A stretch of DNA of 64,000 nt from Candidatus Uhrbacteria bacterium. Lineage in GTDB: Bacteria; Patescibacteriota; Patescibacteriia; UBA9934. Positions within the stretch are counted from its first letter, which is position 1, and the number at the start of each line of letters is the position of its first letter. Shown piece after piece: positions 15,874 to 46,781 of the stretch. The stretch is from assembly GCA_943350635.1 (NCBI GenBank), contig CALRAI010000001.1, forward strand, positions 4,051-68,050, written 5' to 3'. A program made the position numbers and the translations under genes. The notes beneath the pieces are model-generated. The model saw only the letters and a list, made by a program, of their open reading frames with translations. It was not told the DNA's origin and did no database searches.

Positions 15874-15901
15874 ATTTTATTAACCTTACAATAACAGAAA
15901 A

Positions 15902-16042: not shown

Positions 16043-16098
16043 AAATTCAATTTTCGAACGTTGTTATTATGGAATTTTTCGGCTAACGTTGTCAAAGA

Positions 16099-17010: not shown

Positions 17011-17133
17011 TACTCAACATTTTGTGCTAAATAAAATCGGCTATCTTTTCACGATTTCGTGAATTAATCTGGCTGCTTAAATTCGAACGACGTTCTATTT
17101 TTATAAAAGTACTCTCTCAAAGTACTTTTAATT

Positions 17134-17403: not shown

Positions 17404-17427
17404 GACATTCAAAATTAATGCGTATAT

Positions 17428-18533: not shown

Positions 18534-18614
18534 TTATTTCGATCGTGTAGAATGGGAGCGTTGCTCATTGAGGAAGAAATTCCTCCCTGGAACGTCGCTC
18601 CTTAACAACTAAAT

Positions 18615-19953: not shown

Positions 19954-19986
19954 AAAGATTCCGATGCCATTAACATCAGAATCTTT

Positions 19987-20061
19987 TGGTGCGCCGAGCG
20001 GGGATCGAACCCGCGACCACGAGCTTAAAAGGCTCTTGCTCTACCACTGAGCTACCAGCGC
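19987..20061 (-). tRNA. tRNA-Lys (anticodon TTT)
   Basis: Folded by hand as a cloverleaf: acceptor GCGCTGG/TCGGCGC, anticodon loop CTTTTAA, T-arm GGTTCGATCC, encoded CCA. Confidence 0.85.
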
Positions 20062-27512: not shown

Positions 27513-27588
27513 TGGAGCCATTTCCGGGAATCGAACCCGGGACCTCTGCTTTACGAAAGCATTGCTCTACCAGCTGAGCTAAAATGGC
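27513..27588 (-). tRNA. tRNA-Thr (anticodon CGT)
   Basis: Hand-folded: acceptor GCCATTT/AAATGGC, anticodon loop TTCGTAA, T-loop GGTTCGATTCC, CCA encoded. Confidence 0.8.
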
Positions 27589-27604
27589 GAAAATGGATGT
27601 TTCA

Positions 27605-27681
27605 TGGAGCAGGAAACGGGGATCGAACCCGCGACCTTCTGCTTGGGAAGCAGACGTTCTACCACTGAACTACTCCTGCCC
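27605..27681 (-). tRNA. tRNA-Gly (anticodon CCC)
   Basis: Hand-folded: acceptor GGGCAGG/CCTGCTC, anticodon stem TCTGC/GCAGA with loop TTCCCAA, T-loop GGTTCGATCC, CCA encoded. Confidence 0.8.
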
Positions 27682-30477: not shown

Positions 30478-30546
30478 AGAGCCTGATGCTTTGAGCGTGT
30501 TGGGCGTTACGAAGATTGATGGGTTCGGGTGTCTCGAATGTGCTCG

Positions 30547-30590
30547 TGTAAGACAATGTAAGACACTGACTTACACAAGATTGTAAGCAC
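30547..30590. promoter_or_regulatory. iteron/operator-like array of TGTAAG(A/C) half-sites
   Basis: TGTAAGACA (x2, 10-bp spacing), inverted CTTACA, then TTGTAAGCA. Immediately upstream of the GC-rich insert. Confidence 0.35.
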
Positions 30591-30668
30591 CCCCTCACTC
30601 CCGCTCAACCCTTCAAAAGAATCAGTTTCTGTGCTACCTTCGTTCCGCCAATATCGGCAGGAGTTCCC

Positions 30669-31289
30669 ATGATTCGCGACATTCAACTCATCGTTCTCGA
30701 CGGTCAACCTGGTGGCGGGAAGGACTTTTTCCTTCAAATGCTGGAGGCGGATCCGTGGTTCATGCGGAACGCCGTCATCGAAACGGAAGCCGCGGCGCTA
30801 CTGTACACCGCCCACAAGGTGCAGCCGGGGGAGTTCGGCACCGTTTCCCAGGACACGATCGACGCGTTTCAGAACGCCATTGCGAGCCTGTGCATGTTCA
30901 AGCGCTCGCTTGCCGTGGACCGTGCAGTGCGCGACGGCAAGAAGCTCGTGGTGTTCAACCGCTTCATACCGAGTGGTGCGGCGTATCTGCAGTGGGGGAT
31001 TGTGGATCTGATGGCAATCACGAATTTGTCCGAGGTCGAGATGAACAGCGGCATCGACCACGTGATCTGCCCTGGCCCGCCGCCGGAGGAGCACTACGTC
31101 ACCAACGAATATCGGTTCGAGACGTATGCAGAAGCGTGCGTGCTCGGTGCTCGGGCTCGTCAGGCGTACATCGACTTGGGCTTCGTACCAGGCACCACAC
31201 TGCACGACATCCCCGGCGGCGACGACTTCGACGCCAAGTGCGCGCTGTTCATGGCCACGATCCGCCAACTCACCGGTGCCGAGCACTAG
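30669..31289 (+). CDS. P-loop protein (nucleotide kinase-like), GC-rich foreign gene
   Basis: LIVLDGQPGGGKDF Walker-A-like motif ending in GKD, as in phage dNMP kinases. About 65% GC versus roughly 50% backbone. Confidence 0.4.
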   Translation: MIRDIQLIVLDGQPGGGKDFFLQMLEADPWFMRNAVIETEAAALLYTAHKVQPGEFGTVSQDTIDAFQNAIASLCMFKRSLAVDRAVRDGKKLVVFNRFIPSGAAYLQWGIVDLMAITNLSEVEMNSGIDHVICPGPPPEEHYVTNEYRFETYAEACVLGARARQAYIDLGFVPGTTLHDIPGGDDFDAKCALFMATIRQLTGAEH

Positions 31290-31333
31290 CCACGATCGGC
31301 AATCAGCTCAGCACAACACCCACGAAAACACGA

Positions 31334-31367
31334 CGCCCTGCCAACTCTTTCGAGCTGACAGGGCGTT
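31334..31367. terminator. GC-rich hairpin terminator (bidirectional)
   Basis: CGCCCTG-N17-CAGGGCG followed by TTT. Lies between convergent genes. Confidence 0.5.
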
Positions 31368-31403
31368 TGCGTGCGTACTGCGGTCACCGTGTCGAACAGT
31401 GAG

Positions 31404-32318
31404 CTACTTCTTGATCTTGGCCATGGCCGTCTCGCACGCGGCGATGAACGGCAGCATGTCCTCCTTCTTGAAGTAGTAGCTGTACTGGGTCGCGAGCTCG
31501 ACCATGCGGTCGACGCTCGACCAGGTCTTCCGAATGCCGACCACGTCTCGGTGGAGCCGTGTGACGACGCCGGGGCACAGGTTGCGGATGCGGGCGATGA
31601 ACGCCTGCTCTTCCGCGCGCCGTGCATCCGCCGCGATCTCCCATTCGTTCTTCGGCGCATTGCTGTGCTTCGGAACGTACTGGATCGTCTCCACCGGCTT
31701 GGGGGCCGGAACGCGCTGGATCATCGGCGGGGCGATCACGATCGGGGCCACGGCCATCGCACGGAGCTGCTCCAGGGACACGCCCTGTCCGGGCTTGCGA
31801 CGGGAGCTCGGGGCATCGATCTTGCGATCGACGACCACGGGCTTCGGAGCGGCGTAGCGTTGCAGCCACGCGAGGCGGTCGGCTTCGTTGGCCTTCCGCA
31901 CGTCCTCGAGCCAACGGAGGTTCTCTTCCACGCGAGCGGCTTCGGCAGCGGCTTCGGCACGCTCGTTCTCCAGACGCATCGCCTCGGCCCTCGCTGCGGC
32001 GGCGCGACGCTGCTCGGCGGCCTTGCGCGCGGCCTCGATGGCCACGGCAGGATCCGGCTTGACCACCACCGTCTTGGCGACGATGACGACGGGCGCGATG
32101 ATGTCGTTGGAGGGGCGGATGCGCCGCTTGGGCTGCGCGACCGGTTCGGGCCGCTTGGCCTCAACCTCGACGGCGATCTGGTCCTCGCGCCGCCAGACGG
32201 TGGGCGTGCGGCCGTTGTAGCCGGTGTCGAGGGTCGAGACGGCGCCGCGGGTGGCGCTGAGGCGGTGGCCGATGAGGTTGAGAAACTGGTCTTCGATGCG
32301 ATTGGCGGAAGCGGTCAT
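31404..32318 (-). CDS. hypothetical Ala/Arg/Glu-rich coiled-coil protein (GC-rich insert)
   Basis: The long minus ORF is the most protein-like of several overlapping GC-rich frames. Start chosen at MTASANRIEDQ. Confidence 0.35.
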   Translation of the reverse strand: MTASANRIEDQFLNLIGHRLSATRGAVSTLDTGYNGRTPTVWRREDQIAVEVEAKRPEPVAQPKRRIRPSNDIIAPVVIVAKTVVVKPDPAVAIEAARKAAEQRRAAAARAEAMRLENERAEAAAEAARVEENLRWLEDVRKANEADRLAWLQRYAAPKPVVVDRKIDAPSSRRKPGQGVSLEQLRAMAVAPIVIAPPMIQRVPAPKPVETIQYVPKHSNAPKNEWEIAADARRAEEQAFIARIRNLCPGVVTRLHRDVVGIRKTWSSVDRMVELATQYSYYFKKEDMLPFIAACETAMAKIKK

Positions 32319-32467
32319 GTGAAGATCTCCGGGGATTGGGGAAGCGAACGGGGGTGGTGAACAAAGAGCAATCAGTAACAAAATATGATAGCACAATTTG
32401 TGCCTTTTGTAAAGGGGAATGTACCGGTAAAATAGCGAATATTAGCGAAAAAAGATGAAGATTTTCC

Positions 32468-33397
32468 CTATTTAAACGTTGTTTCTTGTGCCTGTTCGGT
32501 TGTATGTTCTCGACCCTCTTGCATAAACTCTAAAATCTTCTCACTACGCATCTCCTCTTCGGTTTCGTATATTCCAGATCTGGCAATATCTGCTGCAAGT
32601 ATTGACTCGTCTATTCCGAATTCCACAGGAAACACTGTTTGTGAAAGAATAAAAGCTGCTTGTCCCATGCACCATTCGTCCTTATTCTCCATGGTAAGTA
32701 ATTCCTTGAAGAGCTTGAGCGCATCGCGTCCATCGCCTTGTTCGCGAGACTCCCTTGCTTCCGCGAGAGCATCAGCTCGCTCCTGATCCAAAGACACAAT
32801 AAGCGAGCTTGGTCCAAAGCGTAGTCCACTATCCGAATATGGAAGATCTTCGTGTTCGCGGATTGTTTGGGCAACCTTGATATTTCCGTAGTTGAGATCC
32901 TCAATTGCTAAAAGATCACTTTCTATAGTGGAATCATGAAAGGCTTTGAAATGTGTTACTTCATGTCCGAGTAGCTCGGCGCTCCAGTCTTCTTCGACGT
33001 CGCTATTTAATACAATAAAATTATCAAGACGTTGAGACGGGGTAAGGTCTTGCGGCGAATGATACCCAATAGCATTCGCGTCTCCGCCAATCATTGCAGA
33101 CGTTGGCCCAGCAAAAAAACGATCGTGTTCAATATAGAATCGCAAATCATCTCGCGATCCTTCTATTTCAGCAACCATGAGCTCCGGGTCGTTTACTGCT
33201 CCGTTTCTATCAACCCACCCACCGTCCATGGAGCGTACCATTTCAAGAACAAGAGGCGTTGCACGATCCGCAACGTCCGCTAAATATTCAACGTTTTCTC
33301 GTTGCGCATCTGTGAGTCTACTCGTGCCCGGTGGCAATGCTCCGCAACCCGTTGTGGCCGCAAGACCGGTGACGATGAGCGCTTTTGGAAAGGTCAT
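32468..33397 (-). CDS. putative secreted zinc metalloprotease lipoprotein
   Basis: Lipobox (LAATTGC) and an HExxH motif (LLGHEVTHF). Confidence 0.5.
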   Translation of the reverse strand: MTFPKALIVTGLAATTGCGALPPGTSRLTDAQRENVEYLADVADRATPLVLEMVRSMDGGWVDRNGAVNDPELMVAEIEGSRDDLRFYIEHDRFFAGPTSAMIGGDANAIGYHSPQDLTPSQRLDNFIVLNSDVEEDWSAELLGHEVTHFKAFHDSTIESDLLAIEDLNYGNIKVAQTIREHEDLPYSDSGLRFGPSSLIVSLDQERADALAEARESREQGDGRDALKLFKELLTMENKDEWCMGQAAFILSQTVFPVEFGIDESILAADIARSGIYETEEEMRSEKILEFMQEGREHTTEQAQETTFK

Positions 33398-33861: not shown

Positions 33862-33898
33862 CTATGGTCCGGGAAATGTATGGTAATTCGCGTGTGGC
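33862..33898. repeat. degenerate att-like repeat (tRNA-Gln 3'-end-like plus GGTAATTCGCGTGTGGCGA)
   Basis: TGGTCCGGGAAATGTATGGTAATTCGCGTGTGGCGA versus TGGTTCCGGGACATGGATGGTAATTCGCGTGTGGCGA at 35121. Confidence 0.4.
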
Positions 33899-33901
33899 GA
33901 A

Positions 33902-34744
33902 ATGATACGTGTGTACACAGGACAAATATGGAATAAAGATAGTATAATTATACATATGCCTATTGAATCACAAGAGAATTCGCAAAACAGTGTCGAGGTG
34001 AAGGACGATGGATATAACTACGAGCGATGGGAAGTTCGACTTGGCGGGCTTTTTACTCAACTTGGTATTGTTCGTGCGTTGGCTGAGGGAGATTTTTCTG
34101 ACGAAGAAAAAGAGCGAATTATTAGGGCAAATGCTGATGAATGGAAGGATATTGTTGCGAAGTTTGGGGAGAACGATCGAGTGGTGCTTCAGAAAGCAAT
34201 AGATGAACTCGGTACGCACACAAAAATCGCCGCACGAGAAATTTGTGACAAACTTGCTGAAGCGATTCGTTTTGCGGGGAAGATGATTCGTCAAACGGCA
34301 CCGTCCGTACAGCAACGCGATGCTATCGATGCTGAGCGAGAACTTGAGGGAGATGCTGCTCATCCTACGCATGAATGGCTGAAAGGAATGGAGGGGGCAT
34401 ACCTTGCGTCACATCTTTCAGATATTACTGCAGAAATAGAGCATAATCATGGAGAAGCGCACATGCTGTATTACGAAATCGGCTCTATTCAGCGCATTGG
34501 TGTACTTATCGAAAACCTACGAGAAAAGATTGATGAAGGAAGGATTGATATTGGAGATCGTGGAGCGGAAGATTGCGCCGATGCAATTCTTGCTGCACGG
34601 AATATGGTGGTGCGCGCAATTATCGCACCGCTTCCGTCTAAACGCTGTCCAGAAATCGATCTTACAAAAATTGATATCGCGATGTTGGATGAAGTTGCAG
34701 ACATTGGCGGCTGGCTTGGCGTGGTAAAAGGGTGGAGTGCATAG
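33902..34744 (+). CDS. hypothetical protein
   Basis: 280-aa acidic, helical protein. No motif recognised. Confidence 0.45.
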   Translation: MIRVYTGQIWNKDSIIIHMPIESQENSQNSVEVKDDGYNYERWEVRLGGLFTQLGIVRALAEGDFSDEEKERIIRANADEWKDIVAKFGENDRVVLQKAIDELGTHTKIAAREICDKLAEAIRFAGKMIRQTAPSVQQRDAIDAERELEGDAAHPTHEWLKGMEGAYLASHLSDITAEIEHNHGEAHMLYYEIGSIQRIGVLIENLREKIDEGRIDIGDRGAEDCADAILAARNMVVRAIIAPLPSKRCPEIDLTKIDIAMLDEVADIGGWLGVVKGWSA

Positions 34745-34756
34745 TGCGAGGTATTA

Positions 34757-35057
34757 TGAAAACGCTGTTTTCATTCCGGGCGAAAGTATGGCTGTATTCC
34801 GGAATGGCGGCGTGGCATTTTGTTACCTTGCCTAAGGATATTGCTCACGACATTGCGGAGCGGTTCTCTCCGCTAAAAAAAAGGGTGGGGATCGATTCGG
34901 GTTGAAATGACCCTTGGCGAAACACGGTGGAAAACATCAATTTTTCCGGACAAAAAAAGAGGAAGCTATGTGCTTCCGCTTAAAGCAAGTATACGAAAGA
35001 AAGAACACGTTTTTGCAGAGGACACAGTGGCACTCGAGTTGAAAATCATTCTATAAC
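34757..35057 (+). pseudogene. DUF1905-family gene disrupted by a frameshift at an A8 homopolymer
   Basis: MKTLFSFRAKVWLYSGMAAWHFVTLPKDIAHDI… continues in another frame after A8 (34872-34879) as …TLGETRWKTSIFPDKKRGSYVLPLKASIRKK…VALELKII. Together these match the DUF1905 pattern. Confidence 0.5.
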
Positions 35058-35120
35058 CATCCTTTCCTACATTCTTTAATAAAACCAACAAAAATCCCCA
35101 GCGTGTGCTGAGGATTTTTG

Positions 35121-35138
35121 TGGTTCCGGGACATGGAT
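35121..35138. repeat. 18-bp exact copy of the tRNA-Gln 3' end (att-like)
   Basis: TGGTTCCGGGACATGGAT is identical to 43494-43511 (tRNA-Gln 3' end). Confidence 0.6.
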
Positions 35139-35228
35139 GGTAATTCGCGTGTGGCGAGCGAGCTCGCCGCGCGAATGACATCCGTATCCCGTACGCCGCG
35201 GTGCGGCTGGCCAGCGTGCGCTGGCGAA

Positions 35229-35266
35229 CCATAAAAATACCAGCCGTGGGGCTGGTATTTTTATGG
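35229..35266. terminator. perfect 17-bp-arm palindrome (bidirectional terminator-like)
   Basis: CCATAAAAATACCAGCC-GTGG-GGCTGGTATTTTTATGG. Confidence 0.55.
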
Positions 35267-35620
35267 TTCTGCGGCCCGGTCTAGATTGAAGCCTTTAAGG
35301 GGACTTTGGGGCACCCTTCTCCCTGCTCACCAACCCTGTTCCGGTCGCATAGAACTGGAGAGTGAAACTGGCAAAAAATGGAATATAGGCCGGAGGGTAA
35401 AATGAGACAAATGAGACACTACATGGGCTGTTTCAAACGACTGTCTCACACACTAACTTTTCGGCTTATGTTCGCCTAATTCTGACGGTAAAGTGGTTTA
35501 TTTTTGACTGTCTCATCTTCCAATTGAATAAAGTCGAATTTCGCCAGTCTCTGCGTCCTGCGCCACGTTGTCGATTAGGCGCTTCATTCCGTCGAGATAG
35601 ATAGTTGGCACTCACTGATC

Positions 35621-36574
35621 CTATTTAAATGGCTTTTGAAGTTTTGATTGCACAACTTCGCTTATTTTATGGGCATCCCCGTGGCTCAACATGCCAAGAT
35701 ACGAGGATACGGATTCCTCTTTGCTCTCTGTTCCAAGATTATTCATCATTCTGCGTTTGGTGGTCGTACGAAGAACCCGATGATGCGGAAAATGCACCCA
35801 GCCTAGGAAATCAATTCCCGAGGCGATTGTGGCAATGGAGACTTTGTTTGGGTGCAACGCGAGGTGTAACCGTGACTCTAAAAATTCAGCGATCTGCGGC
35901 AGGAGATGTTCTAAATATTCTCTGCCTTCATGCAGGACGACAAAATCGTCGGCGTAGCGGATGTAATGTGCTGCCTTCAAATTGCGCTTTATGAAGTGAT
36001 CAAACACGTTCATGTAGATATTGACCAAAAGTTGGCTCGTAAGGTTACCGAGCGGAAGTCCGACGCCGGGCCTGCCGTCCGTGTGAAAACTCCCGATCAC
36101 TTCCGCGAGGAGCCAAAGAATATCTGTGTCGTTGACATGCCTTTTGATGACGTCGAGGAGAATCGCATGATCGATGTTGGCAAAGAACTTTCGTATGTCG
36201 CATTTCAACACCCAAGCGGTACGGGTGTGGTTTTTGGAAACCTTGGCGGCAAATTCTCGAAGACGATTGATTGCGCGATGCGTACCCCTCCCCTCGCGAC
36301 AGGAGTACGAATCAAAAATGAATTTACGATCGAAGAATGGATATAGGATTCGATAGATTGCGTGATGCAGGAGCCGATCACGGACGGTCGCTTTATGAAT
36401 ATCCCTTGGCTTCGGGTCGTTAATCTTAAAGGCATGGTATCCGCCGTGCCGGTAGGACCTATTGGCGAGGTCGCCGTGCAACGCGACGAGATTATCCATG
36501 AGGCTTGCCGCGAAGAGGGCAACGTCTTCCCGTTTCCTTTTTCCAGACAAAAACTCCTGCCAGGCGGCAAGCAA
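35621..36574 (-). CDS. diversity-generating retroelement reverse transcriptase
   Basis: RT motifs including YADDFVVL, and the DGR-specific LGNLTSQLLVNIY (GxxxSQ in place of group II QGxxxSP). 317 aa. TR/VR pair nearby. Confidence 0.85.
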   Translation of the reverse strand: MLAAWQEFLSGKRKREDVALFAASLMDNLVALHGDLANRSYRHGGYHAFKINDPKPRDIHKATVRDRLLHHAIYRILYPFFDRKFIFDSYSCREGRGTHRAINRLREFAAKVSKNHTRTAWVLKCDIRKFFANIDHAILLDVIKRHVNDTDILWLLAEVIGSFHTDGRPGVGLPLGNLTSQLLVNIYMNVFDHFIKRNLKAAHYIRYADDFVVLHEGREYLEHLLPQIAEFLESRLHLALHPNKVSIATIASGIDFLGWVHFPHHRVLRTTTKRRMMNNLGTESKEESVSSYLGMLSHGDAHKISEVVQSKLQKPFK

Positions 36575-36622
36575 ATTTTCAACAGAAATGATATCCTGAT
36601 ACGTACTATGGAGCCGCGCCCT

Positions 36623-36667
<45 letters not shown>

Positions 36668-36708
36668 CCGGAAGCGCGTCGATTCTCCAGCGCGTCAAAG
36701 AGGGATAT

Positions 36709-37032
36709 TTGGTTTGGATGAACATTGCGCCGCATATTGCAAAGGGTGCGCGTTTTACGATTGGCGCCAGGATTGAAAGTAAGTTTCTCGACCTGTTGGA
36801 GTTGAGTTACGCCGCCTATTTTACCGACAAAGAAAAGAAGGTTGCAAAGATTGCCGAGTGTGTCTTCGTGCTCGATACGCTCAAGTTTCTCATCACCACA
36901 GCATGGGAAGGAAGACTGATAGCCAATAAGCAGTGCGAGGACGTTGCCAAAAAGCTGGACGAGATCGGCAAGATGTTCGGGGGCTGGAAGAAGAATCTCG
37001 AAAACCCTGAACGAAAAAACCGCGCCATGTAA
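36709..37032 (+). CDS. Avd-like four-helix-bundle protein (accessory variability determinant / 23S rRNA IVS protein family)
   Basis: …KFLDLLELSYAAY…LKFLITTAWEGRLI…EDVAKKLDEIGKMFGGW resembles the C-terminal two-thirds of TIGR02436-type proteins. TTG start in the ORF track (an ATG lies at 36718). Opposite strand to RT, TR and target. Confidence 0.45.
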   Translation: MVWMNIAPHIAKGARFTIGARIESKFLDLLELSYAAYFTDKEKKVAKIAECVFVLDTLKFLITTAWEGRLIANKQCEDVAKKLDEIGKMFGGWKKNLENPERKNRAM

Positions 37033-37046
37033 GCGCGGAATCAAGC

Positions 37047-37183
37047 ACTTTCGAAGACGGAAGACGAACTCATTGTTCGCATTCCACTTGTTCGTCGGCT
37101 TCGCCCAATTGTTGTTGAGCCACGACCCATCGTCATTGCGTTCCACGTTGAAGACGTTCGGGTTGCCGTCCGAGTCGGATTGC
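37047..37183 (-). repeat. DGR template repeat (TR)
   Basis: About 135 nt that aligns to 37507-37640. Every one of the ~17 mismatches is an A in TR (coding strand) versus C/G/T/A-change in VR. AAC/AAT-rich (NNNWAKPTNKWNANNEF). Confidence 0.85.
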
Positions 37184-37482
37184 ATGGCGTGCCGCCCTTG
37201 CCACTGCCCGCCTATCTAGGAAAGAGGTCGAGCTGTATTTTATGCGTGATCGAAAATCACCAAGCGCGCCATACCAAGTACTTCATTTTTGTTTGGACAC
37301 TCTACGCATCCTCCGAAAGAAGCCGTAGCCACCTTCGTTCTCAACACGCAGGTGCCGAAAGGGTCTCGATAAGCCGTGGCCGACCGATGTAACCAATCTG
37401 CACTCCAGAATACCAAAAATTTTCCGATCCGCCTACGGCGGAAAGCATCAAAGGGTCAAAGAAACAAAGTTTCAAGAAGTAA

Positions 37483-39693
37483 CTAAGGCCTCAAGGGTTT
37501 CTTGCGAAGACGGAAGACGAACTCATAGCTCGCATCCCACACGTCCGCCGGCTTCGCCCAATCGTCGCGGAGCCACGACCCATCGTCATTGCGTCCCACG
37601 TAGAAGACGCCCGGGCTGCCGCCCGAGTCGGAAATTTGCTTCATGCCAACGTACACATATTCGTTCATTGGTTGATTTGTGTACTGCAAACGGAATTGCG
37701 GACCGACCTCTGGCGGACAAAGCTCGAGACCCAGCTCTTCAGCTCGGGCGTAAATTTGATCTGTCGTTGCACCGCTTGGGAAACCCAAATCTTCTACGCG
37801 AAGGCGGATAAGCTTCGCTTCCTCTGGAGATTTGAGTTTCCACTTTTTCCAATCTGGTTGCTTTGGGTCGGGCTCGCGAAGGGAACGCTTGAAGTCATCG
37901 TGTTCCATCATTGATTTGGCGTATCCGTAAATTTGGAATCCGCTACGTTCAAGAAGATTTTCAAGTTCCTGTTCGTCCTTGCCACCGATCTCAATGCTTT
38001 GACGGCGAATGCGGCTCTCAGGGAATTTGGTGTAAACATGCTCTACGCCTTCCGGTAGCTGATCGAAAATGCCAGGCTCAAGCTTGCCGACGTAGGCTTT
38101 AGTCGATTCGTTGATCTGATCAACCGAACGGGCAATTTGGCTTTCATCGCACTCAAAGACGACAAGCATGTCCTCATCAGGATTACGCTCACGGTGCAGT
38201 TCGACAACACGAGGATCCTTGTCGTAGCCGAAACCCTCGATAGGAGCATTGATTTCGTAGAGGAAAAGAAGGTCTTGTTTTGTGAGCGGCTTACCGGCAA
38301 CGGTCTTTTGTTCGACGAGGGTCAAGAGTCTCATGTCGCCGGCTTTCTTCTCGTAAGCCGTGCCATCTGGAAATTCTTTCATCTTTGCTCCGACAACTGG
38401 CGCGATATGCGGATCGAGGTTCTGATCGGGCGCGATACCACGAACCTCGGCAATCTTATCGCCTTCCATACGAATAGCGGCACGGGGAATGCTGCTTGCG
38501 CCGGATTCATCTTGCGAATAGTAAACATAAAAGTCGCCACGGGAGAGCTGGGACTTTGCCACCTCTTCTCCGGCGGTACACCAACCGGTCTTGTGGCGCT
38601 CGATGGATTGGACGAGCAGGGTTGGCTCGGAGCCTTGGGCATACTTCACCCATTGTCCCGTAGTGTTATGCAAGAGCGTTTCGCTGGTCGGGATGAGCTT
38701 GGCAAATTCAAGGGCATAGAGTCTGGCAAAATCCTTGGCATCCAAAGCCGATTGAACTTCCGGTTCGAGATTTCGTTCGTCGACAGGCGTTGCAATTTCA
38801 AACGTTGACGGATCAAACGGAGCCATGTCAAGTTCCGCGATGATTCGTTCGCGGTCAACGGGCGCGGCTGGGTTTTGTTTCTTGGCTTCGGCAATCTTTT
38901 GTCCGATAACAAGCTGGCGTTCCTTGTTGTGCTTTTTTTCTGCTCGTTCCAGCTCCTGCCGTGACGCTGCAAGCTGTTCCTTGTAAATACGATCATGTTC
39001 AACGTGATCGCGAACCTTTCCAAGAACTGCCTGGTCCAATTCGGGGAACGGATTCATGGTCTCTTCGTCCCTGGAGGGAAAGGTTTTGGTGTCCTTATCA
39101 AAACTCGAGAGTCCGGTGACGCTTCTCATTGCCCAGTACCTGAACCAGTCTGGGTAGGCGGCTCCGGCATCATCGGTTGCAAGATAGTCGATCCACTTGT
39201 CCAGTGATCGCTTTTGGTCTTCGATCTTGGCGACGATTTCCTCGGCCATCTGCTTTTGTTCGTTCGGAAGTTCCTGAAGCTCTTCCCCGATGTCTGATCC
39301 TTTGGCGATAGCCTGTACCGCGCGCGTAATCTGATCGTGGACATCATCGGGAATGTCCGTGTCGCCATGTCCTAGGGCACGCGCCTGTTTTTGTTGGTGC
39401 CCCAAATATTCCTCGGTGGCGACGTCAGGTTTCACGATCAGGGCTTCGTGCATGAAGCGCTTCATCATGGAGAGGTTGCGTGCCTTGCGGTCAAAGCTCT
39501 CGTGGCCCTTGATCGGCGGCGGATTGAGCACCACGTCCAGGCGGTCTAGATATGCCTGTATACGTTCCGCTGGGATATTCCGAACACGCTCGCGTGTTCG
39601 AGATTCTTTGCGCGCAACAGCCCTCTCCGCTTCCGGCGATTTCTCAAGCTGGTATTTCTGTCGAAGAAATTCGGGGTTTGATCCTTTTTCCAT
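37483..39693 (-). CDS. DGR target protein with C-terminal C-type lectin/FGE-sulfatase-like variable domain
   Basis: 737-aa soluble protein with no signal peptide. C-terminus fits the CLec VR pattern (G-x-x-x-GSW…W…FVFRL) and contains the VR. Start taken at MEKGSN. Confidence 0.75.
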   Translation of the reverse strand: MEKGSNPEFLRQKYQLEKSPEAERAVARKESRTRERVRNIPAERIQAYLDRLDVVLNPPPIKGHESFDRKARNLSMMKRFMHEALIVKPDVATEEYLGHQQKQARALGHGDTDIPDDVHDQITRAVQAIAKGSDIGEELQELPNEQKQMAEEIVAKIEDQKRSLDKWIDYLATDDAGAAYPDWFRYWAMRSVTGLSSFDKDTKTFPSRDEETMNPFPELDQAVLGKVRDHVEHDRIYKEQLAASRQELERAEKKHNKERQLVIGQKIAEAKKQNPAAPVDRERIIAELDMAPFDPSTFEIATPVDERNLEPEVQSALDAKDFARLYALEFAKLIPTSETLLHNTTGQWVKYAQGSEPTLLVQSIERHKTGWCTAGEEVAKSQLSRGDFYVYYSQDESGASSIPRAAIRMEGDKIAEVRGIAPDQNLDPHIAPVVGAKMKEFPDGTAYEKKAGDMRLLTLVEQKTVAGKPLTKQDLLFLYEINAPIEGFGYDKDPRVVELHRERNPDEDMLVVFECDESQIARSVDQINESTKAYVGKLEPGIFDQLPEGVEHVYTKFPESRIRRQSIEIGGKDEQELENLLERSGFQIYGYAKSMMEHDDFKRSLREPDPKQPDWKKWKLKSPEEAKLIRLRVEDLGFPSGATTDQIYARAEELGLELCPPEVGPQFRLQYTNQPMNEYVYVGMKQISDSGGSPGVFYVGRNDDGSWLRDDWAKPADVWDASYEFVFRLRKKPLRP
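37507..37640 (-). repeat. DGR variable repeat (VR) at the 3' end of the target gene
   Basis: Encodes …GRNDDGSWLRDDWAKPADVWDASYEFVFRLRK. Differs from TR only at TR-adenine positions. Confidence 0.85.
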
Positions 39694-39833
39694 ATGCGGG
39701 AATGGTAGCAAAAACAGCCCAGAATTGGTAGCGCACGTCCACACCTATTTAGGTGGCCTTGAGTTACTACATCTTTTTTGCCCCATTCAAAACGCCACCC
39801 CAGATGGATGGCGTTTTATCTTGTAATTTCTCC

Positions 39834-40313
39834 CTACTTCGTCACGAGCGTGCAGTCCTTCACGAGCACGTTCCCAAGAAGTCCGTTCACGCGTCCTTGC
39901 ATGGTCACCTTGGTGCCCTCTGCCAATGCGCTTGCTTCCGCGATCGCATCGTCGTCGAGCATGCATTGCACGGAGCCGATAATGTCGCCGGTCTTAAGCG
40001 AGATGTATGGCTTGTCGAGAATGTCTTTGCCGATGTTGTCGACTGTACCGCTCACTTCCACGAGCTTACCCTTGTAGGTATTATCGGCGGAAATTTCGTT
40101 CGCCTTATAGTCGGAATAAAGCTTCGTCGACGTGACGACGATCGCTTCTTCCGCCGGCGCGGTATTGGCCTGATTCGATCCTGACGAACTGGTACCCGAC
40201 GAACCACTACCACCGCCAGATGAGGCGATGACAATGACGACGATAATGGCGAGGAGCCAGAACCACCACTTTTTATAAATCGGACGCTTCACCTTGGTTG
40301 GATTGTCACTCAT
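39834..40313 (-). CDS. membrane-anchored OB-fold (tRNA_anti-like/BOF) protein
   Basis: KKWWFWLLAIIVVIVI TM helix, Gly/Ser linker, and C-terminal …YKGKLVEVSGTVDNI… fold. Start at MSDNPTK. Confidence 0.45.
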   Translation of the reverse strand: MSDNPTKVKRPIYKKWWFWLLAIIVVIVIASSGGGSGSSGTSSSGSNQANTAPAEEAIVVTSTKLYSDYKANEISADNTYKGKLVEVSGTVDNIGKDILDKPYISLKTGDIIGSVQCMLDDDAIAEASALAEGTKVTMQGRVNGLLGNVLVKDCTLVTK

Positions 40314-40372
40314 ACGAATATGAATGTTAATAATAAGCGAACTTTCGAGTGATGCTGGGTGAGGCTTTATAG

Positions 40373-40516
40373 CACAAAGCCCGCCGCCAGCATTGTGACT
40401 TTCATCACCGCACCCCTTTCGGAGTACGACCAACCAAGGCTTTGCTGAACGACGGGTTCAGTGCCTTGGTTGGGTTTAGCACCATGCCATGGTCGATGTC
40501 CGATCATGGTTTAGGC
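40373..40516. ncRNA. conserved structured element, copy 2
   Basis: Aligns with 15902-16042. Inner hairpin CTGAACGACGGGTTCAG is identical. Outer stem CCAACCAAGGC/GCCTTGGTTGG covaries with CCATACAAAG/CTTTGTATGG in copy 1. Confidence 0.4.
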
Positions 40517-40606
40517 GACTCTAAGTTGTACGCACATAGTAGCTTATTGCAGAAAACTACTCAAATTGAGTTGCCTACAGTTTGCTTTAGGGATTTTTGA
40601 GGAGAT

Positions 40607-41386
40607 TTGATAGTATTTACAGTAAATATGTCGTTTCGCTTTGATAACCAACTACCAAAAAAGGATGTTTTATCGACCAGCGCATTCCCCGCACTGGAGA
40701 AGCTTTTGGATAATAAAGTATTCTTCCAAGCGATTGAAAATATTGCTAAGGTCGCCGAGCAAATCAATGAGCCAATGAGAAAGTTGGCCGAAATCACGGA
40801 GAAACTCAACGAACCCATGAGGCACATCACTCGTGCAGTCGAGCAAATGCAAACCTCCTTTGGGTTTGATGAGATGCAAAAGTTGGCATCACGTTTTGCC
40901 GATCTTCATACGAACCTCCTTCCAAATTGGGGCGAGGTCATTCGGGCGTACGACGTCCTCAAGCCACCAGTCACGGATGAAGAGTTGGTTGACCTACCTG
41001 CCGAGTCAGAAATAGTGAAGACGGAGATGGTTCGCGATGCGATCATAGCCGTGGGCGTCGAGGCAACGCTGCGATTGGAAAAGACGCTTCCCAAACGAAA
41101 GTTGCGACTCGGTGTGAATCATCGACTGTATGATCGTCAAAATCTCGAAGTGTACGTCGATCTGTCCGATCCGATGTTTGGCCTTGCGAACACACTGAGA
41201 AAGCGTCTTACTCCAACACCAGTGCTTACGGAGGCGTCAAAGTACAAAAATGACACAACCACTCGACGAGGGATACAGCGATTTAATCAGTTGGGTTATA
41301 CTAAGTTTAATCTCGCAGGCAGTATCGTCGTCGAAGACAAAGACTCTGGCTACCGCTTTGCCAAATTCGTGAACGTCAAACTATAA
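40607..41386 (+). CDS. hypothetical protein
   Basis: 259-aa ORF with no motif recognised. Followed by a terminator hairpin. Confidence 0.45.
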   Translation: MIVFTVNMSFRFDNQLPKKDVLSTSAFPALEKLLDNKVFFQAIENIAKVAEQINEPMRKLAEITEKLNEPMRHITRAVEQMQTSFGFDEMQKLASRFADLHTNLLPNWGEVIRAYDVLKPPVTDEELVDLPAESEIVKTEMVRDAIIAVGVEATLRLEKTLPKRKLRLGVNHRLYDRQNLEVYVDLSDPMFGLANTLRKRLTPTPVLTEASKYKNDTTTRRGIQRFNQLGYTKFNLAGSIVVEDKDSGYRFAKFVNVKL

Positions 41387-41424
41387 ATTTGCCAGTGGAT
41401 AAATAAAATTGCCAGTAGGTAGTC

Positions 41425-41455
41425 AAAAACAGGGCTAAGAAAAGCCCTGTTTTTG
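41425..41455 (+). terminator. rho-independent terminator
   Basis: AAAAACAGGGCT-AAGAAA-AGCCCTGTTTTT. Confidence 0.5.
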
Positions 41456-41460
41456 TATGG

Positions 41461-42825
41461 TTGGGTGTAGCAGGGCGACTATCGGGTGTAGCGGCGTGGG
41501 TGATGCAATATCCCCATAACTCTTCACCAACACCTATGCCAAAAGACATAGAACAAACAGCAAAGATCGCCGTTCAATACGTCCCGATAGATTCACTCAA
41601 AAACACAAAATACAACCCGAGAAAACATGATGCGGCCGCAGCGGAAAAGCTGAAAGACAGCATCCGTCGTTACGGTCTCGTCGACCCTATCCTTGTAAAC
41701 AGCGCGCCGAAACGCAAAGGCGTCATCATCAACAAACATTTTCGTTGGAAGGTCGCCAAGGAACTTGGTATTGAGCAAGTACCCGTCGTGTTCCTCAACA
41801 TTCCAAATCCTGAACGCGAGAAGGAACTTAACCTTCGCCTCAATCGGAACACTGGCGAATGGGACTGGAATTTGCTGAAGGACTTTGATCTCGACCTCCT
41901 TCTTGATGTCGGGTTCGATGACGTCGATCTGAGCCATGTGTGGGATGACTCACTCGAAACCGAGGACGATGACTTCAATATCAAAAAAAAACTGGCCAAG
42001 ATTAAGAAGCCAACGACAAAACCTGGCGACATATTTCAGCTCGGCGTGCATCGGCTTATTTACAGCGACTCCACGGATGCAAATGTCGTGAAGAAGCTTG
42101 TAGGGAAAGTTGGTATCGACATGATTTATTCTGACCCTCCGTACAACATCGCCCTCGACTACTCCAAGGGCGTGAGTACTTCCGGTAAGTACGGCGGAAA
42201 AACGAACGATAAAAAAACCACCGTCGATTACCGCGCATTCCTCAGGTCGGCAATGGAGAATGGCCTCGCCGTTGCCAAGTCGGACGCACACGTCTTCTTT
42301 TGGTGCGACGAAAACTACATTGGCGTCGTGCAAAGTCTTTACCAAGAGGTTGGTGTCGCGAACAAGCGCGTGTGTTTGTGGGTGAAGAATAACTTCAACA
42401 TGACGCCGCAAGTGGCTTTCAACAAAGCCTATGAGCCCTGTGTCTACGGCACACGCGGTAAACCGTACCTTGCGCCGAAGATTCAGAACTTGAACGAGCT
42501 GATGAATAAAGAGATCGGCAACGGCAATCGCGTAGCCGATGACATCTTGGATCTTATGAGTATTTGGTTGGCGAAGCGACTGCCCGCGCAAGAATACGAA
42601 CATCCGACGGAAAAGCCGCCCACCCTGCACGAGAAAGCTCTCCGACGCTGCACGAAACCGGGCGACGCAGTTCTCGACCTGTTCGGCGGCTCGGGTTCGA
42701 CGCTCATCGCTTGCGAGCAGTTAAAACGACGCGCGTTCCTGGTTGAGATTGAACCAATATTCTGTGACTTAATCATTCGTCGATATGAAGCCCTCACCAA
42801 AACAAAAGCCAAGCGCATCAATTAA
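41461..42825 (+). CDS. ParB-like nuclease domain fused to DNA N4/N6 methyltransferase
   Basis: N-terminal ParB-N (VQYVPIDSLKNTKYNPRKHD…GLVDPILVN). MTase motifs IYSDPPYNI and EHPTEKP with a C-terminal SAM-binding region. Start may be MPKDIEQ (41536). Confidence 0.7.
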   Translation: MGVAGRLSGVAAWVMQYPHNSSPTPMPKDIEQTAKIAVQYVPIDSLKNTKYNPRKHDAAAAEKLKDSIRRYGLVDPILVNSAPKRKGVIINKHFRWKVAKELGIEQVPVVFLNIPNPEREKELNLRLNRNTGEWDWNLLKDFDLDLLLDVGFDDVDLSHVWDDSLETEDDDFNIKKKLAKIKKPTTKPGDIFQLGVHRLIYSDSTDANVVKKLVGKVGIDMIYSDPPYNIALDYSKGVSTSGKYGGKTNDKKTTVDYRAFLRSAMENGLAVAKSDAHVFFWCDENYIGVVQSLYQEVGVANKRVCLWVKNNFNMTPQVAFNKAYEPCVYGTRGKPYLAPKIQNLNELMNKEIGNGNRVADDILDLMSIWLAKRLPAQEYEHPTEKPPTLHEKALRRCTKPGDAVLDLFGGSGSTLIACEQLKRRAFLVEIEPIFCDLIIRRYEALTKTKAKRIN

Positions 42826-43393
42826 GTTAGGCGACATTTTTCTCCTCGGTGAGCATCGCCTCATGTGCGGGGACGCGCGCGACGCGGATGCAGTCGTGAA
42901 GTTCGTCGGGAAGGAGCGTGTCGCTGCCATTGTTTCCGACCCTCCATACGGTGTGGCCTATGTTGAGAGCAAAGCGGGGTTCAAGCAGAAGCTCGGTAAA
43001 GAGAAAATTATCGTCAACGATCACGAACAATCCGAGGACGAATATCGCATCTTCACCAAAGACTGGATGCTCGCCATTCGGCCATTGCTCGCGCGACACA
43101 ATAGCCTCTATGTGTTTAACGCCGACAAGATGATCTTCGCCCTACGTGAAGGCATGCGTGACGCAGGCTATGTGTTTACTCAACTCCTCATTTGGGCAAA
43201 GACGCACGCAGTTGTCGGTCGCATGGATTATCTGCCACAGCACGAACTTATTGCCTACGGCTGGTACGGACGGCACCAATTCCAGAAGGCAAAGGACAAA
43301 TCGATCTTGGTTTATCCTAAGCCTTCATCGAGCAAGATGCATCCGACCATGAAGGGAGGCAAGCTGATCGTTGAAAAGACCAAGAAAACCTAA
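42785..43393 (+). CDS. DNA N4/N6 methyltransferase (short paralogue)
   Basis: LGDIFLLGEHRLMCGD (the same N-terminal motif as the upstream MTase domain), SDPPYGVAY, and HPTMKGGK. Confidence 0.65.
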   Translation: MKPSPKQKPSASIKLGDIFLLGEHRLMCGDARDADAVVKFVGKERVAAIVSDPPYGVAYVESKAGFKQKLGKEKIIVNDHEQSEDEYRIFTKDWMLAIRPLLARHNSLYVFNADKMIFALREGMRDAGYVFTQLLIWAKTHAVVGRMDYLPQHELIAYGWYGRHQFQKAKDKSILVYPKPSSSKMHPTMKGGKLIVEKTKKT

Positions 43394-43418
43394 GGGTCGC
43401 CAAACAATCAGCCCAAAC

Positions 43419-43452
43419 GAAAACCCGCACTCAATGAAGAATGCGGGTTTTC
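43419..43452. terminator. bidirectional terminator hairpin
   Basis: AAAACCCGCA-N12-TGCGGGTTTT lies between the MTase and tRNA-Gln. Confidence 0.55.
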
Positions 43453-43493
43453 TTGGTCACCCCCTGTCCCGGTCTGTAGGAACAGGTCGTGAT

Positions 43494-43566
43494 GGTTCCG
43501 GGACATGGATTCGAACCATGGTTCACGGCTTCAAAGGCCGCTGTCCTGCCGTTAGACGATCCCGGA
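43494..43566 (-). tRNA. tRNA-Gln (anticodon TTG)
   Basis: Hand-folded: acceptor TCCGGGA/TCCCGGA, anticodon stem GCGGC/GCCGT with loop CTTTGAA, T-arm CATGG-TTCGAAT-CCATG, CCA encoded. Confidence 0.8.
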
Positions 43567-44959: not shown

Positions 44960-45743
44960 ATCCATCAATCGCCTTCAGCACTTCCAATGGCACCGCAAAT
45001 ACTACAGTGTTCGACGCATCGGACGAGATGTCATTGATCGAATTCAGCGTGCGAAGATGCAAGGCTCCTGGCGCTGCAGAGAGCGTAGCTGCGGCGCGTG
45101 CAAGATTTTCTGCGGCAGCGACTTCACCTTCAGAGTTAATGATCACGGCACGTCGTTCGCGTTCTGCTTCCGCCTGTTTCGCGATAGTACGCACCATGTC
45201 TGGCGGCAAGTTAATGTCTTTCAATTCTACTGCGGTTACTTCCACGCCCCATCCGCCAGTTGCTGCTTCTACAAGTTGCTCAATGCGGCTTGAGATTTGC
45301 TGACGCTGGGAGAGGAGTTCATCCAAAGTAACTTCACCAACTACATTACGCATGGTCGTTTGCGCAAGTTGGAGTACAGCCCAGTGCACGTGTTCAACTT
45401 CTATAACGGACTTTTGCGCATCAATAATTTTGTAATAAATCACGGCGGTAATTTTTGCGGAAACGTTGTCCTTGGTAATTGCATCCTGTGGGGGAACCTC
45501 AACCGCTTTCAAGCGAAGATCCACTTTGGTCATGGATTGGAACACCGGAAGAACCAAGCGCCATCCTGGATTGATCATGCTGGTGTAGCGGCCCATGGTG
45601 AATTTTACGCCACGTTCAAACTGGTTGATCTGACGGAGGGAAACAAGACACACCACCGCAACCACGAGAAGAAGAAAATAAAACATACAGAGGAATAAAG
45701 AATCGATGCATATATCATTACGCCGAAAGGCCTCTATCCGCAA
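44943..45743 (-). CDS. SPFH/band-7 (stomatin-like) membrane protein
   Basis: N-terminal TM, then an SPFH core (…KDNVSAKITAVIYYKIID…) and a coiled-coil Ala/Glu-rich tail. Confidence 0.75.
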   Translation of the reverse strand: MRIEAFRRNDICIDSLFLCMFYFLLLVVAVVCLVSLRQINQFERGVKFTMGRYTSMINPGWRLVLPVFQSMTKVDLRLKAVEVPPQDAITKDNVSAKITAVIYYKIIDAQKSVIEVEHVHWAVLQLAQTTMRNVVGEVTLDELLSQRQQISSRIEQLVEAATGGWGVEVTAVELKDINLPPDMVRTIAKQAEAERERRAVIINSEGEVAAAENLARAAATLSAAPGALHLRTLNSINDISSDASNTVVFAVPLEVLKAIDGFKKGG

Positions 45744-46659
45744 GATGTGACTGGTGGTGTTCTAGGAAAAGCAGCACCTGGAGCATTTCCTTGTGTGGAT
45801 CATTTTTCTGTACGACGGCACGATAAATGGCTTGAAGAAACGGAAATTCTGGCAAGGAAAGATTGGGAATGTTTACAACACACGGCAGTGTATTCATTAC
45901 CTCGCTTCCTCGATGTGGGGGAAGGCCTTGGGCCAAAAGATTTCCCGTCATGTAATTCGTCGAGTTTGTACTTTGTGCCGTTGCGACCAAATCCCCAAGT
46001 CCCGCAGGTCCTAATGCGGTTTCTCGTCGTCCACCTTGCTGTTCAACAATCATCATCATTTCTTCAACGGCTTGAGAAACAAGGGATCCATGAATATTGC
46101 TTCCCATGTGTAATCCGTCGCACATTCCTAAACCAAGCGCGTAGATATTTTTGAGCGCCGCCGAAAGCACCGTTCCAGCAATATCGTCCGTTTAACGAAC
46201 CACAAGCGGTGTATGCCGAAACAGCATGGCAACCGTATTGCGTGCCGTTGTATTCAAGCTCGCAGCAACGCCGGTGGCCGGAAGCCCGTTGAGCAATTCC
46301 TCGGAGATCATTGGTCCGCCAAGAAACACAAAGGGATTGTGTTGAGGAAGGTGCTGAGGAAAGAGTGTGTCCACACGTTGGCACGTTTCCTTCTCAAATC
46401 CCTTGGACACACTGACGATGATCGTTTTCTCCTGAAGGTACGGATGGATTTCTTGCAGAACCGATCGTGTCGTCCACGTAGGAACACATGCAATAAGCAC
46501 ATCGCAGGAGGGAAGAATCGATTGCAGTGGTGATTGATGGGGGAGAATGTCGCTATTCTTATCCCAACACGTTACCGTAAGATTCGGCTGTGGTTTGAGG
46601 ACATGGTGCAATGCCTTGCCCATTTCTCCGTATCCAAGAATAACAACATGTGTGACCAT
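45718..46659 (-). pseudogene. gpsA: glycerol-3-phosphate dehydrogenase [NAD(P)+] interrupted by a single in-frame TAA
   Basis: N-terminal NAD-binding part (VVILGYGEMGKAL) in ORF 46192-46659 and C-terminal part (AGTVLSAALKNIYALGLG…) in ORF 45718-46170 are in the same frame, separated only by TAA at 46189-46191. Confidence 0.6.
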
Positions 46660-46781
46660 AGATACAGTAAGTATACTCGAGCGCCGTACGATAATGAAAA
46701 AAAAGTGAAGGAATCCGTTGAGTGTAGGCATCGACTGATTTATACTGTTGCGGTATCGCAATATTCTTTATTGGACACTCT

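Follow-up and report, generated by a model that had tools for sequence, protein, structure and literature searches.

Classical tRNA islands encode a tyrosine integrase, insert at the 3′ side of a tRNA gene without disrupting it, and are recognised by the Islander signature, in which a fragment of the tRNA 3′ end lies in the same orientation as the gene. tRNA genes have not been counted among the targets of serine integrases (PMC4383910). In the TIGER survey, 14 of 297 serine-integrase (S-Int) elements lay at t(m)RNA genes, which was described as “not reported previously” and for which experimental proof was asked (PMC7192596). Genomic islands, among them a type I restriction-modification island, have been described in work on horizontal transfer in Patescibacteria that did not analyse recombinases or tRNA targets (PMC12455944). 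Here, we describe an 8,223-bp genomic island (35270–43492) beside a tRNA-Gln gene in a 64,000-nt stretch of a Candidatus Uhrbacteria contig (the window, to which all coordinates refer unless another locus is named), of which an initial annotation had covered positions 33862–43566. The island carries a diversity-generating retroelement (DGR) and two DNA methyltransferase genes. It is probably a member of a Patescibacteria family of islands; a large serine recombinase (LSR) would have placed it at the very 3′ end of the tRNA-Gln gene, and a deletion would later have removed the recombinase gene.

The island combines features of several described systems. As in LSR elements and prophages (phiC31, Bxb1, A118, SCCmec-type), its relatives encode a Resolvase, Recombinase and Zn-ribbon protein at the element edge, a short identical core is found only at the junctions without a long tRNA-derived repeat, and variable cargo lies between conserved ends. 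Unlike these elements, the island has the last six bases of a tRNA gene as its target, and the copy in the window lacks a recombinase. It shares with classical tRNA islands the 3′-side insertion, the intact tRNA, and a hot spot with serial tRNA-end fragments, but it has no tyrosine integrase, its duplication is only ∼6–7 bp, and the 18-bp tRNA fragment nearby bounds sequence that is also present in empty sites. A classical island is found in the same window at 9013–20061: an exact 27–30-bp direct repeat of the 3′ end of tRNA-Lys(UUU) (19987–20061, minus strand) lies at 9013/9016–9042, a tyrosine integrase (18664–19953) adjoins the tRNA, a phage-type replication-initiation protein is encoded at 17428–17979, and the element is apparently intact. 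Its integrase is the only Phage_integrase protein of the window, and none was found among the open reading frames (ORFs) at 33.4–43.5 kb. The tRNA-Gln island resembles grounded or decayed prophages and islands, in which the junctions are intact, the recombinase gene has been removed by an internal deletion and the cargo is fixed in the chromosome. It shares its ends with serine-integrase elements but encodes no recombinase, and is thus best called a decayed derivative. Its breakpoint is unusually clear compared with such prophages: the remaining half of a methyltransferase is joined in frame to the last ∼14 recombinase codons. The family-level picture of LSRs at tRNA tips, of which the island is one decayed member, appears to be little described.

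Insert-free tRNA-Gln loci, a comparison already suggested by the initial annotation, exist in three relatives, L004, L013 and L019. Homologues of the DUF362 protein encoded beside tRNA-Gln were found only in Patescibacteria-type metagenome contigs, and a scan of genome contigs with this protein gave no match. In the closest relative, L004, the DUF362 protein is 77% identical and synteny with the window extends over ∼15 kb in the order Mur ligase, DivIC, rotamase, FtsE/X, a 309-aa protein, a small membrane protein, tRNA-Gln, DUF362, NMNAT and Band-7. Only ∼230 bp separate the membrane-protein gene of L004 from tRNA-Gln. This interval is homologous to window positions 35128–35269, opens with ...GGGGACGTGTATGGCAATTCGCGTGTGGCAAGCGAGC... 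(the sequence first noted as not tRNA-derived), and closes with a 20-bp hairpin that meets the tRNA directly. Its counterpart in the window is a four-hairpin non-coding element (NCE, 35121–35269). A degenerate pattern built from the NCE led to three more loci, L011, L012 and L013. L011 reads as L004 across the compared region; L012 and L013 are two Candidatus Uhrbacteria metagenome-assembled genomes (MAGs), and in L013 the NCE adjoins tRNA-Gln(CUG) without any insertion. The distant relative L019, with a DUF362 protein of 38% identity, is also island-free and shows the order P0154 (a homologue of the 280-aa protein encoded at 33902–34744 in the window), terminator, GGTTCCGGGA..., hairpin element, 20-bp hairpin, tRNA-Gln(UUG) and DUF362. 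The empty sites of L004, L019 and L013 have the 20-bp terminator hairpin directly against tRNA-Gln, with the sequence ...TTTTTGT/TGGTTC/CGGGAC... (slashes mark borders), and L005 and L011 likewise join the terminator directly to the tRNA, as expected of an unoccupied attB.

Because 35121–35269 adjoins tRNA-Gln in the island-free relatives, the left border of the island lies at 35269/35270 and not at 35138/35139. Thus, the foreign insertion at tRNA-Gln seen in the initial annotation is borne out by its absence from L004, L019 and L013, whereas the borders given there for an inner element (35139–43493) are replaced by 35270–43492. The insertion is flanked by TGGTTC copies at 35264–35269 and 43493–43498 (ATGGTTC counting the preceding A). 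The right-hand copy is the plus-strand reading of GAACCA, the final six bases of tRNA-Gln(UUG) (anticodon ttg, minus strand), which ARAGORN calls as an intact gene at 43493–43566, one base longer than the 43494–43566 first annotated. At the left junction, the 20-bp hairpin is followed from 35264 by TGGTTC/TGCGGCCCGGTCTAGATTGAAGCC..., or TGGTTC/TGCGGCCC..., with the tRNA 8.2 kb further on, and the right junction reads ...AGGAACAGGTCGTGA/TGGTTC/CGGGAC from 43478. Five further assemblies of this organism have junction regions of 99.85–100% identity to these, which therefore are not assembly artefacts.

Both arms recur in elements that do carry a recombinase. The left end (P′ arm, 35270–35519, plus strand, beginning TGCGGCCCGGTCTAGATTGAAGCC...) aligns with L012 4539–4771 in local alignment and blastn; its first 45 nt (TGCGGCCC...GGGGCACC) show a single difference from L012, and an exact 19-mer of the arm was found only in L012 and same-species contigs. 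The right end (P arm, 43394–43492, plus strand), a terminator followed by TTGGTCAC..CCGGTC..AGGAACAGGTCGTGA, is conserved downstream of the LSR genes of L014–L018, and GGAACAGGTCGTGA is identical to L014. The arms around the short core are thus common to recombinase-bearing elements, on the left with L012 and on the right (43350–43492) with L014–L018, and the core is TGGTTC in all of them.

In L012 (contig CALRGY010000001.1), the TGGTTC/TGCGGCCCGGTCTAGATTGAAGCC junction is followed by ∼250 nt homologous to 35270–35519, a conserved leader, and a gene whose 451-aa product combines Resolvase, Recombinase and Zn_ribbon_recom domains, i.e., an LSR. Homologues of this protein are very numerous in Patescibacteria. 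Those of L014–L017 are 81–82% and that of L018 is 76% identical to it; in each of these loci the LSR is the final gene of an island with restriction-modification genes, and the L014–L017 islands also hold a ParB-methyltransferase that is 34% identical to the one in the window. A blastn comparison of window positions 43350–43517 with the LSR 3′ end and its downstream region (terminator, ...GTGA/TGGTTC) gave 79% identity for L014–L017 and 74% for L018. The LSR of L018 stops 100 nt from an intact tRNA-Gln(CUG), with the junction ...CCGTGA/TGGTTCCGAGAC, and the same 100-nt spacing is found in the window between an ORF stop at 43393 and the tRNA at 43493. By blastn and alignment, this ORF ends in the last ∼14 codons of an LSR gene (43350–43393, plus strand), fused in frame to the truncated methyltransferase: its terminus, KGGKLIVEKTKKT before the stop, corresponds to KGGKLSIEKKRKT at the LSR terminus of L014. 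The remnant is visible only by DNA comparison with L014–L018. Apart from it, no gene with Resolvase and Recombinase (and Zn-ribbon) domains was found in the island or the 64-kb window, and tblastn of the L012 LSR against the window detected no LSR gene or other remnant. In line with the initial annotation, which had noted no recognisable integrase and suspected decay, Pfam finds no integrase domain in the block, and the gene tail is what remains of a decayed element. Judged from the sequence of this tail, the recombinase that was lost is an LSR rather than a tyrosine integrase of the classical kind, which would have used a long core derived from the tRNA.

A highly conserved ∼75-nt leader lies directly upstream of the LSR start codon (GGCACCCCGGACAGATGTGGCAT.A.TGTCC.TGCCACATAACGGC; L012 4779–4852, L014 ∼9905–9985, L018 9919–10003). 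It is probably a regulatory structure, and it was not found in the window. The right junction of L014–L017, GTGA/TGGTTC, is followed by a tRNA-like fragment, TGGAGCAAGAGATTCGAACC (L014 11391–11425), without an ARAGORN tRNA call, so that these islands seem to have targeted a tRNA gene that is degraded or of another kind. More distant LSR relatives in IMG/VR (44–55% identity) stop 95–187 nt short of the 3′ end of a tRNA that converges on them, which is tRNA-Gln in two distinct contigs and tRNA-Ser(CGA), tRNA-Asp and tRNA-Glu once each (L028/L056, L076, L031, L034, L069); in most other IMG/VR contigs with such an LSR, its stop is more than 400 nt from any tRNA. The tRNA-adjacent cases suggest a whole serine-integrase clade specialised on tRNA 3′ tips.

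We propose that the LSR would recombine an attP site, ...GTCGTGA TGGTTC TGCGGCCC..., with an attB site, ...TTTTTR TGGTTC CGRGAC..., composed of the tRNA-Gln terminator and the last bases of the tRNA. Strand exchange would take place inside TGGTTC (GAACCA in the tRNA), so that the tRNA would stay uninterrupted, no restoring fragment would be needed, and the junction repeat would measure only 6–7 bp. In intact relatives, the LSR is the last island gene, convergent on the tRNA, with its stop ∼100 nt away. In the window, one internal deletion would have taken the 3′ half of the second methyltransferase gene, the LSR leader, and all of the LSR except its last ∼14 codons, and both att junctions would have survived. 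As the methyltransferase ORF lacks its C-terminal half and ends in the LSR C-terminus, a single deletion would explain the missing recombinase. The island would now be fixed, or could at most be mobilised by a cognate LSR acting in trans, which the good preservation of both junction arms may permit. The predicted junctions are ...GGTATTTTTA TGGTTC CGGGACATGG... for the empty attB and ...AGGAACAGGTCGTGA TGGTTC TGCGGCCCGGTC... for attP.

Several observations weigh against this history. The window itself has no recombinase, and its catalysis is deduced solely from relatives, in which the LSR adjoins the left end (L012) or the right end (L014–L018); hence, the ancestral layout of the island is not certain. 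The left arm is seen in only one other genome, L012, whose right end lies beyond the sequence compared. The predicted circular attP junction, CGTGATGGTTCTGCGGCCCGG, was not found in IMG/VR, nor was the P′ arm, and the reconstructed attP has weak dyad symmetry. CCGGTC..TAG.AAC motifs (CCCTGTYCCGGTC) are directly repeated near both island ends and resemble tyrosine-integrase arm sites, which at z ∼3 is suggestive only. Moreover, all of the loci compared (L004, L011–L019, L023–L025 and others) are metagenome contigs or MAGs.

The repeats on which the initial annotation had based its reading belong to the sequence left of the island. The 18-mer TGGTTCCGGGACATGGAT, described there as an exact copy of the end of tRNA-Gln, has two exact matches in the window, one at 35121–35138 and one in the tRNA itself (43493–43510). 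With up to three mismatches the whole window contains no further match (chance expectation 0.03). A degenerate tRNA-end copy does exist further out, but it fits better at 33865–33881 (TGGT-CCGGGAAATGTAT; 15 of 18 positions with one gap) than at the proposed 33862–33879. The shared ∼20-nt sequence following both copies proved to be an exact 21-mer, ATGGTAATTCGCGTGTGGCGA, at 33880–33900 and 35137–35157 (chance expectation 0), and repeat finding aligned 33868–33900 with 35125–35157 at 94% identity. Searched elsewhere, the exact 21-mer was not found in viral and metagenome collections; the degenerate element pattern recovered the copies in L011, L012 and L013. The 21-mer is not the arm of a mobile element, since it is also present in island-free loci. 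In the outer copy, the hairpin tip is shortened by a 16-nt deletion, after which both copies resume with AATGA. This outer copy (33862–33905, plus strand) is a truncated extra copy of the 5′ part of the NCE, with the degenerate tRNA-end-like arm, the 21-mer and AATGA, and it is orthologous in its left flank to the flank of the single NCE in L004. The 18-mer and 21-mer are the 5′ arm of an older NCE between terminator and tRNA-Gln rather than att scars of the island, and the outer copy is a truncated duplicate of that arm.

The NCE (plus strand) has homologues in L004, L012, L013 and L019, and all five copies share its four-hairpin fold (z-scores −7.2 to −11.0), with 15 pairs that show compensatory double changes (RNAalifold). 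The base of hairpin H1 (35123–35194) consists of antisense and sense copies of the tRNA-Gln 3′ end, the antisense arm being the 18-mer. It is followed by H2 (35195–35207), H3 (35210–35225), and H4 (35226–35269), the 20-bp terminator-like hairpin that ends in TGGTTC. H2, H3 and H4 vary in sequence among genomes yet stay perfect Watson-Crick palindromes, and H4 always contains GAACCA/TGGTTC, the last six bases of the tRNA. Both H1 arms track the adjacent tRNA, with TCCCG in the window, L004 and L019, and TCTCG in L013 and L012. The sense copy of L013, ATCCATGTCTCG, matches its own tRNA at 12 of 12 positions, and the antisense arm is perfect (18/18) in the window and degenerate in all other genomes compared. 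A scan against Rfam found no family at gathering score; the best scores, RNAI (28.8 bits; gathering 47) and asX1 (31.2 bits; gathering 70), only mirror the generic hairpin-plus-terminator shape. We also considered H1 as a tRNA or tRNA-like gene and rejected this, as it has no ARAGORN call, is rod-shaped, and keeps an ACCA end only in the window and L019.

Together with the terminator hairpin upstream, the 18-mer forms a second attB-like site (35083–35138, plus strand; ATTTTTGTGGTTCCGGGACATGGAT versus ATTTTTATGGTTCCGGGACATGGAT in the reconstructed attB), which is unoccupied, the attB-like stretch itself spanning 35105–35138. Its homologues are the terminator/tRNA junction in L004 and, in L019, the terminator followed by GGTTCCGGGA. 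In L012, an island right-end remnant, CTGTAGGAACAAATCGTGA, is fused to the pseudo tRNA end of the NCE. These two observations indicate that the NCE may serve, or may have served, as a second target. Past the NCE, L012 4350–4538 holds a displaced 16-nt tRNA-Gln fragment, TGGTTCCGAGACATGG, an unrelated ∼125-nt module and another terminator-TGGTTC, followed by the LSR element. These serial modules imply that several insertions used this tRNA end, with at least two crossover points.

The initial annotation had interpreted the 18-mer and 21-mer as att scars of two related elements integrated in tandem via an 18-bp tRNA core in the manner of tyrosine integrases, with an inner element at 35139–43493, an outer one at 33880–35120 and a common 20-nt arm. 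The exact 18-mer is indeed correctly oriented, and before it lies a copy of the terminator found downstream of the tRNA, as would be expected if a piece of tDNA had been displaced; the 21-mer follows both copies. However, this arm and everything up to 35269 lie beside tRNA-Gln in three island-free loci; a correctly oriented tRNA-end fragment exists, but the 149 nt that start with it (35121–35269) belong to the empty sites as well, and it therefore does not delimit the DGR island. In L012, the left arm begins with TGCGGCCC after TGGTTC behind a different, non-NCE module, and the sole recombinase remnant is that of a serine recombinase. Nor is the outer 1.2-kb block a second integrated element: P0154, a 44%-identical homologue of the 280-aa protein in a homologue search, stands in the same gene order with tRNA-Gln and DUF362 in L019, a distant relative, and the block is therefore ancestral. 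Tandem integration is thus largely refuted by L004, L013 and L019, and we regard it as very unlikely. Compared with these relatives, the layout of 280-aa gene, terminator (35083–35120), 18-mer and hairpin element up to 35269 is ancestral, and only 35270–43492 is extra. The simplest reading of L004 is that it lost 1.26 kb between the two repeats, since the left flank of its single copy matches the outer copy and its right part the inner copy. Ancestral synteny, which the initial annotation had named as evidence that would count against its reading, thus holds from the 280-aa gene through 35269 and fails for the gene block at 35270–43492. That this block, too, was ancestral and lost in the relatives, with no mobile element and the repeats as local duplications, is hardly tenable. 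It would agree with the missing recombinase gene, with the lack of compositional contrast (GC content 46–54% in the island block versus 49% in the window) and with the same layout in all same-species assemblies, but it would require deletions with identical TGGTTC end points in three independent relatives, and it leaves aside the LSR gene tail and the recurrence of the block ends beside LSR genes in unrelated contexts with different cargo (L012, L014–L018).

The origin of the NCE is a separate matter: it may be what is left of a very old island, a tRNA-Gln duplicate in decay, or an element with a function as RNA or DNA. In the first case, the NCE would be the stump of a tRNA-Gln island far older than the present one, with the 18-mer as the displaced piece of tDNA, the original terminator on its left and H4 as a terminator brought in by that island, and the LSR island would have landed beside it later. 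This scenario, which we consider possible but doubtful, is compatible with LSR-mediated insertion of the DGR island and adds an origin for the NCE. The layout of terminator, tRNA 3′ fragment, 130 nt and tRNA fits the Islander signature (PMC4383910), and the right-end remnant against the pseudo tRNA end in L012, together with the second displaced 16-nt fragment there, points to a repeatedly used site. Yet such a stump must predate the split of the window and L019 and still keep four perfect hairpins with compensatory changes. Its arms follow the adjacent tRNA in each genome, which needs gene conversion or selection rather than plain decay, and the sense-orientation tRNA-end copy inside H1 is not predicted. 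Alternatively, the NCE could be a functional, lineage-specific partner of tRNA-Gln instead of a scar, either as a landing pad (second attB) that would capture or divert LSR islands or as a structured RNA that would mimic or pair with the tRNA-Gln 3′ end. We rate such a role of this roughly 150-nt module as rather unlikely.

The cargo genes proposed in the initial annotation (DGR, OB-fold membrane protein, ParB-methyltransferase fusion and second methyltransferase) were confirmed by Pfam. DGRs are frequent in genomes of Patescibacteria (Candidate Phyla Radiation, CPR), and as in other CPR DGRs, a reverse transcriptase (RT) and Avd are accompanied by a template repeat (TR) and a variable repeat (VR) with adenine-only mismatches, with the VR at the target C-terminus. 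The RT (35621–36574, minus strand) matches Pfam RVT_1 (1.5e-25) and a PADLOC RT (5.5e-52), and Avd (36709–37032) matches Pfam bAvd (1.4e-13) and NCBIfam DivGenRetAVD (1.3e-16). TR (37048–37179) and VR (37501–37632), both on the minus strand, form a 132-nt repeat of 86% identity in which 18 of 18 mismatches fall at TR adenines. The VR lies in the C-terminus of a 753-aa protein without family match (37483–39744, minus strand). With RT, Avd, the TR/VR pair, adenine-specific differences and a VR inside the target ORF, this is a bona fide DGR, predicted from these repeats to diversify the C-terminal ∼45 residues of the 753-aa protein. Unlike other CPR DGRs, it has avd on the plus strand, opposite to RT, TR and VR and between TR and RT, a polymorphic (TC)20–21 tract in the RT/avd gap, and an LSR-type tRNA island as its carrier. 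The microsatellite (36625–36664) lies within the 134 bp that separate RT from the divergently oriented avd and is length-polymorphic, with (TC)20 in the window, L024 and L025, and (TC)21 in L023, another assembly of the same organism; such a (TC)n tract could switch DGR expression on or off.

The remaining cargo lies between the DGR and the tRNA. The membrane-anchored OB-fold (tRNA_anti-like) protein (39834–40433, minus strand; Pfam PF12869, 2.5e-27; phrog_8545, 5e-28) resembles in sequence phage superinfection-exclusion (Sie-like) proteins. A 259-aa protein (40607–41386, plus strand) has no family in Pfam, PHROGs, NCBIfam or PADLOC. The fusion of ParB_N and an N6/N4 DNA methyltransferase domain (N6_N4_Mtase; 41461–42825, plus strand; Pfam; phrog_498, 2.6e-97), which is called in L001 from 41536 with 429 aa, matches phage and orphan type II methylases in PHROGs and PADLOC; its relatives in IMG/VR are only 31–36% identical and uninformative. 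The second N6/N4 methyltransferase (42785–43349, plus strand; whole ORF including the LSR tail, 42785–43393) is truncated, covering positions 1–117 of 221 in the Pfam N6_N4_Mtase model and 162–349 of 436 in the PADLOC model; it keeps DPPY and lacks the C-terminal S-adenosylmethionine-binding part.

Left of the NCE, the 280-aa gene (plus strand) is called as 262 aa in other assemblies and is chromosomal rather than island cargo. Its product has no family match in Pfam, PHROGs, NCBIfam or PADLOC, and exact-protein look-ups of the 280-aa and 309-aa ORFs returned nothing, probably owing to different start codons. The 259-aa and 280-aa proteins were considered as recombinases and rejected, given the lack of a family match in the four libraries and the chromosomal position of the 280-aa gene in relatives. 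The adjacent DUF1905 gene (34756–35056, plus strand) is frameshifted, as first annotated: one A added to an A8 run (34875–34882) restores the frame, and the corrected sequence matches Pfam with 3.9e-26. The same A8 run is present in four other independent assemblies, and the frameshift may mark a genuine pseudogene or a site prone to slippage, or stem from a systematic error in sequencing. Further upstream, 30500–32500 is a patch of 56–68% GC in a genome of 49% GC and holds a 206-aa AAA-like ORF and a 330-aa ORF. We rejected it as part of a larger composite island, as L004 has the same patch, which is thus not recent foreign DNA. Elsewhere in the window, a tRNA-Thr/tRNA-Gly pair (27513–27679) is inverted relative to the otherwise collinear L004 (2660–2817), a ∼200-bp inversion between conserved flanking genes. 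Glycerol-3-phosphate dehydrogenase (45718–46761) is divided between an ORF of 150 aa and one of 189 aa, probably by a frameshift or as a pseudogene; L001 is called with the same split, and L004 and L007 have a single gene of 300–329 aa. A dispersed palindromic repeat, GTCATCCCCGCG.AGGCGGGGATCCA...TGGATCCCCGCCT.CGCGGGGATGAC, occurs at unrelated positions in three genomes (window 7189–7245, L004 6095–6152, L013 1089–1156) and looks like a repetitive extragenic palindrome (REP) or a miniature inverted-repeat transposable element (MITE).

With this analysis, a DGR-bearing island of an ultra-small Patescibacteria genome gains defined borders and a plausible history, indicating that DGRs travel in Patescibacteria as cargo of site-specific islands. 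It also points to a rarely reported integrase-target pairing, in which an LSR clade abundant in Patescibacteria is repeatedly encoded ∼100 nt away from the 3′ tips of tRNA genes that converge on it, and it yields attB and attP sequences concrete enough for direct testing and possibly new integrase tools. For island finders, the locus is a caution that a perfect 18-bp tRNA-end repeat may be a resident conserved element and give false island borders. If the NCE, which co-varies with tRNA-Gln, were a functional partner of this tRNA, and the LSR clade dedicated to tRNA 3′ tips, the two would represent a previously uncharacterised integration system in Patescibacteria.

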